Assembly (NCBI GenBank): GCA_003482855.1
Contig: DMXO01000002.1
Coordinates: 28,060-92,059, forward strand
From: Candidatus Magasanikiibacteriota bacterium
Lineage (GTDB): Bacteria > Patescibacteriota > Patescibacteriia > Magasanikbacterales > UBA922
Reading direction: 5' to 3'
Length of the DNA: 64,000 nt
This document shows positions 8,664 to 41,269 of the stretch, in pieces (within the stretch, counting starts at the first letter, position 1; the number at the start of each line of letters is the position of its first letter). Made by a program: the position numbers and the translations under genes. Below the pieces are notes generated by a model. The model did no database searches. It had not been told where the DNA came from and worked only from the letters and a program-made list of their open reading frames with translations.

Positions 8664-10457
8664 TTATTTCTTACTCGCGCGTGCACCACGTATACGATCC
8701 ACATCTTTCAAGACTTGTTTTCTTAGACGGATACTCTTTGGAGTAATTTCGAGATATTCATCCTCTGCAATAATCTCAAGCCCACGTTCAAGTGTAAGCT
8801 CCAAAGGTGGTGTCAACTGTATCGCAATGTCTGCACTAGACGCACGCATGTTGGTGAGGTGCTTCCCTTTGATAGGATTCACGACCATATCTTGCCCTTT
8901 TGCGGTATTGCCTATGACTTGTCCTTCATATACCTCTATATTCGGGCCGACATATAGAGAACCACGGTCTTGCAAATTGGCAAGCGAATATGATAATACC
9001 TTGCCAACTTCACCCGATATCATGGATCCTGTATCATATTTATCTATCTCACCTGCGTGTGGTTTAAATCCTATCACTTCACTACACAGAATACCTTCGC
9101 CACGAGTGTCTACAATGAATTCATTGCGATAGCCAAGAAGCCCTCTTGTTGGTATTTCATAAATCAGACGCGTATGATTCTGTTCAGGACGCATTTCTAC
9201 CATCTTTCCTTTTCGTTTGGACATCTTCTCTATCACAGTGCCACAACATTCTTGAGGAATATCTATAGTTACACCTTCATACGGTTCACATGTTACACCA
9301 TCTATGTCTTTGATAATTACCTGTGGCTGAGATACTTGCACTTCAAACCCTTCGCGTCGCATATTTTCAAGCAATATAGCGATATGCAATTCACCACGTC
9401 CATACACTTTGTAATAATCTATAGCGGAAAAATCTATTTTCAAACCTACGTTCACTTCCAATTCTTTTTCAAGTCTTTCCCTGATTTGTCTATTAGTCAC
9501 GAACTTTCCTTCTTTACCTGCAAATGGAGAGTTATTTACCAAAAAATTCAATGAGATAGTTGGCTCATCAATTTTGATAGCAGGCAATAGTTCCTGTTCT
9601 CTATCTGCACACACCGTGTCACCAATATATATATCTGGCAAACCTGCAATCATGACAATATCTCCAGCGACAACTTCCTGAACTTCTTTTCGTGTCAAAC
9701 CTTCAAATGTAAATAATTTGGTAATACCACCAGGGATAATTTGTCCATCATGTTTTTTGAGGAACACTCTATCACTCATTTTCAAAACTCCTTGGTACAT
9801 ACGTCCAATACCCATACGACCCAGATAGTTGTCATACGCAAGATTGAATGGTTGGAAGGTAAATGGGAGAGTCGTATCTGCTTTTACTGCTGGTACTTTT
9901 TCCAAGATAGTATCAAGCAAGGGAGTCAAATCATTGGATTCATCAACCAAATTCTTTTTTGCAATCCCCTGCTTCGCAATCGCATACACGGTCGTGAAAT
10001 CAAGTTGTTCATCATTGGCACCAAGATCCATAAACAATTCCAAAACTTTTTCTTGTGTCCATTCTGGTCGTGCTGCTGGTTTATCTATTTTATTAATCAC
10101 CACAATAGGTTTAAGTCCAAGTTCAAGTGATTTTTTCAATACAAATTTTGTCTGAGGCATGGGACCTTCTTGCGCATCTACTACAAGCAAAACAGAGTCA
10201 ATAGATCGGAGGACACGTTCAACTTCTGAGCCAAAATCCGCATGGCCTGGAGTATCTACGATATTAATTTTTGTATCTTTATAAAAGACTGATGTATTTT
10301 TTGAATAAATCGTAATACCGCGCTCTTTCTCAAGCGCATTGCTATCCATGCTTACACTATCATCTGTCACCATGCCGGTCTGGCGCATGAGAGCATCGGT
10401 CAATTTTGTCTTGCCATGATCAACATGAGCAATAATGGCGATGTTGCGAATTTCCAT
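8664..10457 (-). CDS. typA: Translational GTPase TypA/BipA
   Basis: 597 aa, N-terminal [20 protein letters not shown]-domain, EF-G-like domain architecture and length typical of BipA. Confidence 0.88.
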
Positions 10458-16199: not shown

Positions 16200-16228
16200 T
16201 TGACAAAAACATATAAATTTGCTAACTT
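16200..16228 (+). promoter_or_regulatory. Sigma70-like promoter P1 of GC-rich island A (TTGACA-17-TAACTT)
   Basis: Perfect -35 hexamer, exactly 17-nt spacer, TAnnnT -10. Confidence 0.45.
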
Positions 16229-16276
16229 AATGTCCGTATTCATCCGCCAAATGGTGGGTTTCTCAAAGGAGGACCG

Positions 16277-16489
16277 ATGTCCCAGGACTCGCGCCACCGC
16301 CAGATCAGGCTCGTGACCCCCAACCCCCGCCGGAACGAGGTCAACACGCATATGTGCGAGCTGACCACCTGTGTCTGTCGCGGCAGGCGGGCAGCGTTGA
16401 CCTTCCGTCATGTGGAAGGCACACTCGCTTGGCTCTGCCCGAGCGCCAGCCGGCAGATCGACGCCACCACCTCGCGGCGGGTGGGCTGA
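16277..16489 (+). CDS. Island A gene 1: small Cys-containing protein (70 aa), unknown function
   Basis: AAGGAGG SD 4 nt upstream of ATG. High GC with G/C-rich third positions, in contrast to the AT-rich backbone. Cys at CELTTCVC and WLCP. Confidence 0.5.
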   Translation: MSQDSRHRQIRLVTPNPRRNEVNTHMCELTTCVCRGRRAALTFRHVEGTLAWLCPSASRQIDATTSRRVG

Positions 16490-16502
16490 CAAGGTCAACA
16501 GA

Positions 16503-16621
16503 GCCACAAGTCGAAGGAGGGAACGGTTTTGCAAGCGTGTATGCACGCCTTCAAAACCCAAAAGCCTATATGGCACACAAGGGAGGACGCATCGCTTGTA
16601 GATCCGCGTCCTCCTTCGACT
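16503..16621 (+). other. Structured inverted-repeat element unit 1 (agtcgaaggagg ... cctccttcgact)
   Basis: Perfect 12-bp terminal inverted repeat enclosing about 90 nt with internal hairpins. Left arm contains an SD-like GAAGGAGG. Begins right after the stop codon of gene 1. Confidence 0.55.
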
Positions 16622-16682
16622 ACTATCTTCAGCAAAATGATGAGAATAGTAGTAAAAACCACTCCAAGTAGTACTCGGCGTG

Positions 16683-16711
16683 GTTTTTTTGTTGACAAAT
16701 TCTTCTCTATA
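16683..16711 (+). promoter_or_regulatory. Sigma70-like promoter P2 of island A (TTGACA-17-TAATCT)
   Basis: Perfect -35, 17-nt spacer, TAnnnT -10. Embedded in an AT-rich spacer between the two GC-rich genes. Confidence 0.45.
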
Positions 16712-16762
16712 CATTAATCTCTCACTTGTCGCTTCAACCGCCATCACCACAGGAGGTGAAAG

Positions 16763-17161
16763 ATGGCAGGTAGCATGGTTTCGGTGAACATGGTACTCAT
16801 GGGCAAAGACTTCCAGATGGAAGTCACTGGGGTTCTCCACTCGTCGCGTGCGATGCGACAGAATGGGGGATCCCGACGTGGGACCGTCCTGATCGGCCGG
16901 ATCATCCAGGGCGAGATGACCGTGATGGACGAGGTGTGGGTGCTCAGGAACTTCGACCCCAACACCGAACCGATCCACGACAGGGTCATCAGGATCGAGA
17001 CCAGTCGAGCCTCCAGAGACAAGGCTGGCGTGAACACGATGGTCGGGGTCTGTCTGAGTGTCTCTTCCATGGGCGACATCATCGGGCGCGCGGCCGCCCG
17101 CGCCTACGACGCGGCTATGATCGAGCAGCGGCGCCAGATGCCGCCGCGTCCGGTGGCGTAG
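16763..17161 (+). CDS. Island A gene 2: 132-aa protein resembling a standalone EF-Tu domain-II-like beta-barrel
   Basis: AGGAGGTG SD 4 nt upstream. GTVLIGRIIQGEMTVMDEVWVL ... RVIRIETSRASRDKAGVNTMVGVCLSV pattern parallels EF-Tu domain 2 (GTVVTGRVERG..VG.EVEIV ... AGDNVGVLLRGV). High GC3. Confidence 0.5.
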   Translation: MAGSMVSVNMVLMGKDFQMEVTGVLHSSRAMRQNGGSRRGTVLIGRIIQGEMTVMDEVWVLRNFDPNTEPIHDRVIRIETSRASRDKAGVNTMVGVCLSVSSMGDIIGRAAARAYDAAMIEQRRQMPPRPVA

Positions 17162-17280
17162 CCACAAGTCGAAGGAGGGAGTGGTGACGATGGCAACAGC
17201 CTCAATCACCGCACGGCCCGATATTACATCGGGCAACGCAACAAGGAAGGCGCGTACGTTCATCGCGCCCTCCTTCGACT
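17161..17280 (+). other. Structured inverted-repeat element unit 2 (same 12-bp arms as unit 1)
   Basis: Starts at the stop codon of gene 2. Same gccacaagtcgaaggaggga left end and cctccttcgact right end as unit 1, with a different interior that has its own hairpins. Contains ATG 17190 after the SD (37-codon ORF running into AT-rich DNA). Confidence 0.55.
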
Positions 17281-17312
17281 GTTTTGATTATCAAATTTGG
17301 TAATAAGAATAG

Positions 17313-17344
17313 CAAAAAGAACCCTTAGTAAGGGTTCTTTTTAA
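17313..17344. terminator. Bidirectional hairpin terminator (agaaccctt agta agggttct + T-run)
   Basis: 9-bp stem with 4-nt loop flanked by A and T runs. Confidence 0.55.
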
Positions 17345-34950: not shown

Positions 34951-35021
34951 TCGGGGATCGTCTAATGGTAGGACTTTGGGTTCTGGTCCCAACTATCGGG
35001 GTTCAAATCCCTGTCCCCGAG
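34951..35021 (+). tRNA. tRNA-Gln (anticodon CUG)
   Basis: Manual cloverleaf: acceptor tcgggga/tccccga, D-arm gtct-aatggta-ggac, anticodon arm ttggg-ttCTGgt-cccaa, T-arm cgggg-ttcaaat-ccctg (T-loop TTCAAAT), discriminator G. Confidence 0.7.
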
Positions 35022-39399: not shown

Positions 39400-40344
39400 C
39401 TACTTGAGTGGAATTTTTTTGAGGATATTTTTTAATTCTTCCAGTGTACTTATTTTCATCAATTCTTGTCTCAACGCTTTCATACCAGATATGCCCTTGA
39501 AATAATGGGCTAGATGCTTCCTAAATGTAACAAGATTTCCATAGTATTGTTCATGCAGCTTCGCATGTTGCAAAACTACATCAATAATATCTTGAAGTTG
39601 GGGATATTTGGATATTTGGATATTTGGATATTGTTGAAATATCCATGGATTCCCTAGCGATCCACGCCCAATCATGACCCCATCAGCACGAGTGACTTCC
39701 AAACAATGTTTCATATCTTCTCTTGTTACTATATTTCCATTTGCAATGACGGGAATTTTTACTAATTCCTTTACTTTCCCTATCATCTCCCAATTTGCTA
39801 CACCAGAATAACCTTGGGATTTTGTCCTACCATGTATAGAAATAAGATCAGCCCCAGCCTGTTCAAGTTTTGGGGCAAACTCTAATATTTCATCATCTTT
39901 TGACCATCCCAGCCGCGTTTTTATACTCACTGGAACGCCCAAATTTGCGTTTTTGAGAGCTTTTACTATGGCAATGGCTCTATCATGGTCTTTCATGAGA
40001 GCCGCGCCAGAATCGGCCTTCCCTGCAATCTTGGGAACAGGACAACCCATATTCACATCTATACCATCTGGCTTATACTTTGTTACTATAATTTCTGCTG
40101 CCTTTTGTATCCTTTTAGGATCTGCACCAAACAACTGCAAAATAATTAGCCTTTCACCCATATCAAATTCACACATTTTCAATGTTTTTTCATTTCCCCT
40201 TACAATCGCTTCTGCACTTACCATTTCACGAAAAATGACAAAATTATTTCCAGAAACCTCCCGACAAATACGACAAAACGGTCCATCAGTCATATCGGCC
40301 ATAGGGGCAAGAACAATTATCGGTTTTTTGTCAAACCACGTCAT
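39400..40344 (-). CDS. dus: tRNA-dihydrouridine synthase
   Basis: LAPMADMTDGPFCRICRE, DVNMGCP, FMN-binding TIM-barrel motifs. Confidence 0.88.
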   Translation of the reverse strand: MTWFDKKPIIVLAPMADMTDGPFCRICREVSGNNFVIFREMVSAEAIVRGNEKTLKMCEFDMGERLIILQLFGADPKRIQKAAEIIVTKYKPDGIDVNMGCPVPKIAGKADSGAALMKDHDRAIAIVKALKNANLGVPVSIKTRLGWSKDDEILEFAPKLEQAGADLISIHGRTKSQGYSGVANWEMIGKVKELVKIPVIANGNIVTREDMKHCLEVTRADGVMIGRGSLGNPWIFQQYPNIQISKYPQLQDIIDVVLQHAKLHEQYYGNLVTFRKHLAHYFKGISGMKALRQELMKISTLEELKNILKKIPLK

Positions 40345-41156
40345 AAAGGACTTTTGATCTTTTTTAAATTTGGATTTGTTACATGCGTATATATTTGTGT
40401 TGTTTTTATGCTTGCGTGGCCGAGAAGTTCTTGTACAAAACGCACGTCTACGCCATCTTCCAGCAAATGTGTTGCAAAACTATGTCGGAGCGAATGAAAC
40501 GTTGCTTGTTTTTGTATTCCTATTTTTGCAAGCGCGACTTGAAATATTTTTTGAGGCGTTGCTGATGTTAATTTGCCCCCTCGTTCACTTTCAAAGACAA
40601 AATCCTCTCCTTTTTTACATGCCATAATATCCTTCAGATCTGGAATCAATGATTCTGATAATGTGGTTATCCGATCTTTTCTCCCCTTTCCACCTCGTAT
40701 TGTTATTACTTTTTCAAATATATCAATATCTCGTACACGCAAAGAAATTAATTCACTTACACGGAATCCGGATCCGTATGAAATAGCGAGCATGAGTCTA
40801 TGTTTTTTATTTTTTGGCGCGGAAATAATAGATACTATTTCATTTCTATTCAAAACAACAGGCAATGCTTTGTTCCTTTTTGGCATGCGAAATGGTATGA
40901 AATCCGCACGCTGGTATAATTCTCTATACAAAAAATTAAGTGCATTCGCATACAATGCAACCGTTTGGGGCGCAGAACCGCCATCTTTTTTATTCAATAA
41001 ATATAGCTCTATCTCATCCCGAGAAATATCTTTTGGTGGTTTTCCGAGTGCACGATATATATCCTTATATACATTTGTATATGCCTCTATAGTTCGCGGG
41101 CTATAATTGATTAGCCTCATTTTTTGTGTTACTATATCTATAAGATTTTTTTGCAT
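40341..41156 (-). CDS. Tyrosine recombinase, XerC/XerD-like (phage integrase family)
   Basis: R..HxxR..Y catalytic residues (HSLRHSFATHLL...LGHASIKTTQIYTHV). Stop overlaps the dus start by 4 nt. Start chosen at MQKNL. Confidence 0.8.
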   Translation of the reverse strand: MQKNLIDIVTQKMRLINYSPRTIEAYTNVYKDIYRALGKPPKDISRDEIELYLLNKKDGGSAPQTVALYANALNFLYRELYQRADFIPFRMPKRNKALPVVLNRNEIVSIISAPKNKKHRLMLAISYGSGFRVSELISLRVRDIDIFEKVITIRGGKGRKDRITTLSESLIPDLKDIMACKKGEDFVFESERGGKLTSATPQKIFQVALAKIGIQKQATFHSLRHSFATHLLEDGVDVRFVQELLGHASIKTTQIYTHVTNPNLKKIKSPL

Positions 41157-41269
41157 ATTCAGACAATAAATATTCAGTATAATATACCAAAATGGACTAT
41201 TATACAAGAACATTCCGTATAACTGCTAGTTATGTGAAATTGTGGCAAAACTTAAATGAAGTAAAGGGT

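Follow-up and report, generated by a model that had tools for sequence, protein, structure and literature searches.

The GC-rich island described here (island A) is best explained, with a probability that we put at about one half, as two tandem accessory cassettes of a moron-like kind, each ending in a cis-acting 3′-UTR RNA built around a four-way junction. The two cassettes would be transcribed separately and would share one order of parts: a promoter of the sigma-70 type, some 40 nt of GC-rich leader carrying a genuine Shine–Dalgarno (SD) sequence, a small open reading frame (ORF) with high-GC codons, a structured 3′-UTR RNA of about 115 nt, an AU-rich hairpin and an intrinsic terminator. 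The 3′ units would be paralogous copies of a lineage-specific RNA, in which a 13-bp closing helix (P1) encloses three hairpins (P2, P3 and P4), and the island most likely arose by tandem duplication of a cassette bearing a barrel gene.

Island A lies on the AT-rich chromosome of a member of Candidatus Magasanikbacteria, within the candidate phyla radiation (CPR), in the 64-kb stretch of DNA that was analysed (the window), between sod and a lipoprotein gene that is followed by rpoD and dnaG. Its neighbours are housekeeping genes (sod, rpoD, dnaG and pyrH), and the flanking Sod (HAT03197.1) and DnaG (HAT03201.1) both belong to Candidatus Magasanikbacteria. Because two independent metagenome assemblies (L009 and L084) reproduce the island sequence identically, it is not the misassembly that the first-pass annotation had allowed for; the one base that differs in L084 is just upstream of the island. 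The strain-level comparison of the window with L083 and L084 shows nothing beyond assembly gaps, a single SNP and a single indel, and is uninformative. In a second lineage (L001), a two-cassette island also sits between sod and rpoD, and shares both architecture and site with that of the window. The housekeeping proteins of the two lineages are 70–81% identical and the neighbouring genes have a pS of 0.68–0.75, i.e., synonymous divergence is saturated; between lineages, the GC-rich units and islands are gained or lost as wholes.

The island stands out from its surroundings in composition, as had been noted from the start: about 59% GC, against 39.7% for the whole window. GC3 is 0.7–0.86 in island genes versus 0.23–0.41 in native genes, and island A has kept its GC3 at one site through the saturated synonymous divergence between window and L001. 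SD sequences are present in 8 of 10 island genes versus 3 of 56 native genes (Fisher p 1e-6), and inside the window a native gene with an SD-type motif is found once in 36. Base composition and SD use that are both foreign to the genome might suggest a functionless fragment of recently arrived foreign DNA, or an assembly chimera; we give this almost no weight, since the independent assemblies are identical over the island, the island occupies a shared site in a lineage where pS is 0.68–0.75 for the neighbours and 0.58 for gene 2, purifying selection acts, as judged from sequence comparison, on both this gene and unit 2, and a search among billions of proteins found no donor-like homologues. 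Selection on RNA structure within the ORF bodies was considered as the source of the GC-richness and rejected (fold z of −1.6 and +0.4). The long-lived GC-richness is unaccounted for by the tandem-cassette model.

Phage morons, as found in lambdoid phages, are autonomous promoter–gene–terminator units of deviant base composition. The cassettes of island A resemble them in being complete transcription units, each with its own promoter (albeit with a weak −10 box) and factor-independent terminator, in lying between unrelated genes of unlike composition, and in being present or absent as a whole. Unlike morons, they are found outside any prophage, among housekeeping genes, and have stayed in place with their GC3 kept while synonymous divergence became saturated. 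As there are no phage genes around island A and no PHROG matches for the island proteins, we use “moron” as an analogy and not as a statement of membership. BLAST of the island against phage DNA and protein likewise gave no match, PADLOC and NCBIfam returned nothing relevant for the island proteins, and in the literature we found nothing relevant on GC-rich small-gene islands in CPR bacteria.

The promoter of cassette 1 (16200–16228, + strand) is composed of a TTGACA −35 box (16200–16205), a 17-nt spacer ending in TGC and a TAACTT −10 box (16223–16228), while that of cassette 2 (16692–16720, +) has TTGACA (16692–16697), again 17 nt, and TAATCT (16715–16720). In L001 the −35 box and spacing of cassette 1 are kept, and TTGACA, 17 nt and TATTCT are found at the position aligned to the cassette 2 promoter. 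The proposal of a TTGACA-17 promoter for each gene is thus borne out by the −35 boxes, both perfect and conserved in position in L001, but not by the −10 boxes, which are weak; a consensus promoter scan listed neither promoter, and missed that of cassette 1 because of its weak −10 box. The SD of gene 1 (AGGAGG, 16267–16272, +) lies 4 nt upstream of the ATG, the spacing that had been given for both genes; for gene 2 (AGGAGG, 16751–16756, +; GGAGG in L001) the distance is 6 nt. Downstream of unit 1, an AU-rich spacer and intrinsic terminator 1 occupy 16622–16690 (+), with the terminator at 16654–16690 (AAAAACCAC...GTGGTTTTTTT), where L001 has a canonical hairpin plus T-run. Downstream of unit 2, the AU-rich hairpin UUAUCAAAUUUGGUAAUAAGAAUAG (17281–17312, +) lies between the unit and the terminator and forms in the whole-transcript fold. 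Three of the four units are followed by this hairpin in conserved form; it does not recur as a general motif in the window, and it resembles a promoter when read on the − strand. Next comes a bidirectional intrinsic terminator (17313–17343), which separates gene 2 from the convergent lipoprotein gene.

The two 3′ units are about 115 nt long, have identical 20-nt starts and 13-bp inverted arms, and have GCCACAAGTCGAAGG and CCTTCGACT as their two ends. Unit 1 (16503–16621, +) is the more diverged copy, with P1 arms at 16509–16521 and 16609–16621; in unit 2 (17161–17280, +), P1 is formed by 17167–17179 with 17268–17280, and inside it lie P2 (17181–17212), P3 (17216–17234), a purine strand “b” (17243–17250, +) and P4 (17251–17267, +). 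The window contains exactly two copies of GCCACAAGTCGAAGGAGGGA, at 16503 and 17161 (chance expectation 0), and four of GTCGAAGGAGG (0.47 expected), as two inverted pairs. The inverted pairs are the arms first recognised from the sequence, and they extend to 13 pairs in each unit, the innermost pair of unit 1 being G–U. The placing of the units immediately after the stop codons needs adjusting, as unit 1 begins 13 nt downstream and unit 2 overlaps the stop codon. Both fold far below their shuffles, at −53.2 kcal/mol (z −5.8) for unit 1 and −57.7 kcal/mol (z −7.2) for unit 2, with 0 of 200 shuffles as good in either case, which, together with the covariation, agrees with their original description as RNA-like.

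The four units, two per lineage, form one RNA family with P1 and three hairpins, to judge from their sequences. A covariance model built only from the unit 2 pair (window and L001) recovers unit 1 of L001 at 64 bits (E 2.5e-15) and unit 1 of the window at 26.9 bits (E 4e-5), and finds no further member in the 115 kb scanned. Compensatory changes are found in P1 (A–U to G–C), in P2 (U–G to C–G; G–C to A–U; G–C/A–U to U–A/U–A) and in P3 (G–C to A–U; A–U to G–C; U–A to C–G); with four known units in two lineages only, this covariation represents few independent events. We assign the structure to the sense RNA because eight G–U pairs stand against one A–C, and because scores on the + strand greatly exceed those on the − strand: 147, 137, 64 and 27 bits sense versus 40, 29, 13 and 13 antisense, the values for unit 2 of the window being 147 (+) and 40 (−). 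Unit 2 is about 92% identical between window and L001, while the terminator stems next to it are fully diverged, which argues for constraint on the unit sequence itself.

The search for more copies that had been proposed yielded the two in the second lineage, at the same sites, and none other in the public collections scanned. The arm pattern gave 49 chance hits in 185,579 species genomes, in unrelated and mostly high-GC genomes and none with the spacer/terminator context, and none in viral contigs; the right arm with the AU hairpin was found in the metagenome scan only in an L001-type contig. At gathering threshold, Rfam, with its tRNA, tmRNA and ribozyme models, finds only a tRNA-Gln at 34951 in the window and nothing in the island; at E up to 10 it returns noise below every gathering score (best E-value 0.23), and ARAGORN finds nothing in the island. 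A dispersed repeat of the MITE or REP type was rejected: the 64 kb contain two copies, both within the island, and the related lineage has them at the same two sites only.

As the segment running from the unit through the AU hairpin to the terminator is conserved, it could be seen as a 3′-UTR-derived, trans-acting sRNA with a CCUCC seed; in an antisense variant, a − strand promoter in the conserved AU-rich spacer would give an RNA starting at the right arm. A promoter-like TTGCTA-17-GATAAT on the − strand at 17315–17287, of which GATAAT is kept in L001, and the inner hairpin of terminator 1, which pairs better on the − strand, would be consistent with the latter. Both versions are distinctly improbable, however, given that promoter-like sites in the region are at chance level (6 versus 4.7 expected), that the unit structure is much better on the + strand, and that the CCUCC motif is base-paired and not in an exposed loop.

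The left arm had been proposed as an SD for small ORFs starting at TTG 16529 and ATG 17190, with the right arm masking it, so that each unit would be a translational switch. In the window, both units do have an SD-like GAAGGAGG with a start codon 3–12 nt further on, and the arms do pair. The peptides, however, lack conservation: the unit 2 copies of window and L001 are in different frames on account of a 2-nt indel in the P3 loop, the ORFs have no stop inside the unit and extend into the spacer, terminator or next promoter, and the start codon differs in position in all four units, with unit 1 of L001 having GGGGGG and no ATG. The substitutions are moreover compensatory, of the kind expected in an RNA stem and unlike codon changes. 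Since the small ORFs are not conserved, such an upstream-ORF switch is not supported, and we regard it as very improbable; under the tandem-cassette reading the units would encode no peptides. Nor is the arm strictly an SD, as one unit carries GAAGGGGGG/CCCCUUC arms, from which it follows that pairing, and not SD identity, is what is kept.

Recombination was the third role first suggested for the units, which would then be attC-like cassette boundaries, with ORFs exchanged while the flanking promoter and 3′ unit stay conserved. In common with attC sites, the units are imperfect inverted repeats (those of attC being some 60–140 nt) directly 3′ of an ORF, conserved at the ends and variable, sometimes branched, inside. 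Gene 1 is unrelated to the gene at the corresponding place in L001, although promoter, unit arms and spacer have been kept; in L001, the 8-mer CTTCGACT from the end of the unit recurs in the 5′ leader of cassette 1; and islands have been gained and lost between lineages. An attC site, though, is defined by an inverse core (RYYYAAC) at its 5′ end and a core (GTTRRRY) at its 3′ end, folds as the bottom strand, and serves promoterless cassettes in a system with intI and attI. The island has no such core sites and no intI, its cassettes have a promoter and a terminator each, and G–U pairs and covariance scores favour the sense and not the bottom strand. There is no integrase nearby, the sole tyrosine recombinase in the 64 kb being a 290-aa Xer-like protein (40341–41213) 23 kb away, and the window has no reverse transcriptase or transposase. 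Each genome has just two copies, the genome, viral and metagenome scans gave no others, and the interior of unit 2 is conserved in sequence; we consider a recombination site improbable.

A further possibility involves the SD sequences themselves. The icaR mRNA of Staphylococcus aureus base-pairs with itself, an anti-SD motif in its 3′ UTR binding its own SD. Island A is similar in having a C-rich, anti-SD-like strand in the 3′ UTR that is complementary to the gene's own SD. In the corresponding model, the pyrimidine strand “c” (CCCUCCUU) would pair with the SD of its own mRNA, or else exposed purine strands would titrate the ribosomal anti-SD, with strands “a” (the left arm) and “b” as internal competitors, making translation of the SD-led genes conditional in an otherwise non-SD genome. 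The right arm is complementary to the SD region of each cassette (duplexes of −12 to −19 kcal/mol), in three of the four cassettes no arm does better than the cognate one, and the match in gene 1 is a perfect 9 bp. In all four units the right arm has a choice of two partners, the left arm and the second purine-rich strand; “b” covaries with “c”, and the alternative b:c hairpin forms in every unit once the left arm is blocked. Native genes lack an SD while island genes have one, and there is a precedent in Bacteroidia, with SD-blind ribosomes and a few regulated SD-bearing genes (PMC7797042, PMC13000453). Against this, the predicted pairing differs from that of icaR in that the anti-SD strand is already locked, in the minimum-free-energy structure, in the 13-bp helix of a four-way junction with two internal purine competitors, and this helix is stabler than any 5′–3′ duplex. 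In the better conserved cassette, cassette 2, only a 5–6 nt core is complementary to the true SD, as expected for any GGAGG/CCUCC pair, and one unit has GGGGGG/CCCC arms. We therefore think such a device unlikely, if not strikingly so. Melting of P1 by the terminating ribosome was also rejected as a candidate, as the distance from stop to arm is not conserved (5–6 nt in two units and 20–31 nt in the other two).

The island ORFs are real coding sequence, as read from their GC1/GC2/GC3 patterns and, in gene 2, from pN below pS and a conserved N-terminus. Gene 1 (16277–16489, +) encodes the protein of 70 aa and 4 Cys reported initially, which is rich in Arg. It has no known relatives: no homologues and no family matches were found, and its AlphaFold model is of low confidence (pLDDT 60.6). 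GC by codon position is 0.58/0.59/0.86, with the third-position signal along the whole frame. The idea that it is a frameshifted barrel gene was rejected, as tblastn is empty and third-position GC is uniform over the frame. For a 162-aa island protein, too, no homologues were found.

Gene 2 (16763–17161, +) encodes a protein of 132 aa, an EF-Tu domain-II-type β-barrel, as first proposed and in agreement with the three-dimensional fold of EF-Tu domain 2, to which strands at the N-terminus and a helix at the C-terminus are added. It scores 21.6 bits (E 3e-4) against GTP_EFTU_D2 (PF03144), which is below the gathering threshold of 30.3 bits, and 9 of its 10 distant stand-alone barrel relatives match the same model at 20–29 bits, all sub-threshold. 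Unlike EF-Tu, it has no G domain (no GTP_EFTU match) and no domain 3, and is thus not a translational GTPase; the true GTPase of the window is BipA (8664–10457). Between window and L001, pN is 0.35 and pS 0.58, with the N-terminus conserved. No relatives were found in viral contigs. The barrel protein probably binds RNA; a precedent is Pbp11, a stand-alone barrel of Thermococcales that binds tRNA and the PAN-proteasome (PMC9540759). Pbp11 and PF0907 (PDB 7anu, 4pgo/1xe1) are free-standing EF-Tu-domain-II-like barrels, as is gene 2, so that a standalone protein of this fold, noted at first as unusual, is not without precedent, the more so with about ten distant stand-alone relatives. The gene 2 protein differs in being bacterial, in sharing only 18–20% identity with them, and in its distinct two-strand extension at the N-terminus and long helix at the C-terminus. 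Neither it nor P0002 matches the Pbp11 model NF041207 (cutoff 100 bits), against which the distant relatives score 17–25 bits. A rule that barrel-family genes carry a strong SD in SD-poor genomes was also tried and does not hold: the SD is strong at three of six loci and weak at one.

Returning to the tandem-cassette reading, the unit RNA would act in cis on the sense transcript, and its most likely role would be in the stability or processing of the 3′ end. REP elements and lambda sib are 3′ stem-loops that set mRNA stability or mediate retroregulation by RNase III. Like them, the units place a stable helix directly 3′ of the coding region and 5′ of the terminator, with P1 stacked on P2 or P4 giving a helix of roughly 20 bp; unlike them, they have a four-way junction and a conserved interior and are not dispersed. 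The unit may also be a platform to which the barrel protein from the upstream gene binds. Such a partnership is not general, because cassette 1 of the window has no recognisable barrel and no such unit accompanies the distant barrel genes elsewhere. Two conformations would be open to the unit, as its strand “c” can pair with either of the purine strands “a” and “b”.

A reading that joins these features, and which we hold to be decidedly unlikely, is that SD-led, GC-rich micro-genes are a separately controlled translation class, in which the 3′ element, with its two SD-like strands and one anti-SD-like strand, would sense or titrate the ribosomal anti-SD or the barrel protein and so couple expression to the state of the ribosome. 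Selection, or a local GC-biased process, would then actively keep GC3 high, which would not be a remnant of transfer. In a more extreme variant, the cassettes would be tuned for expression in a high-GC, SD-using host cell of this presumed episymbiont.

With the four units, CPR bacteria, whose RNA biology is almost unexplored, gain a new structured RNA motif that has covariation behind it, and with gene 2 and its relatives a bacterial family of free-standing EF-Tu-domain-II barrels is documented. Within one genome, two gene “grammars” are found, one native, AT-rich and SD-less, the other of small, accessory, GC-rich and SD-bearing genes, whose composition is long-lasting. If that composition is actively maintained, island A would be a tractable case for what sets the local base composition and the way translation is initiated, and likewise for how genes are acquired and regulated in reduced symbionts.

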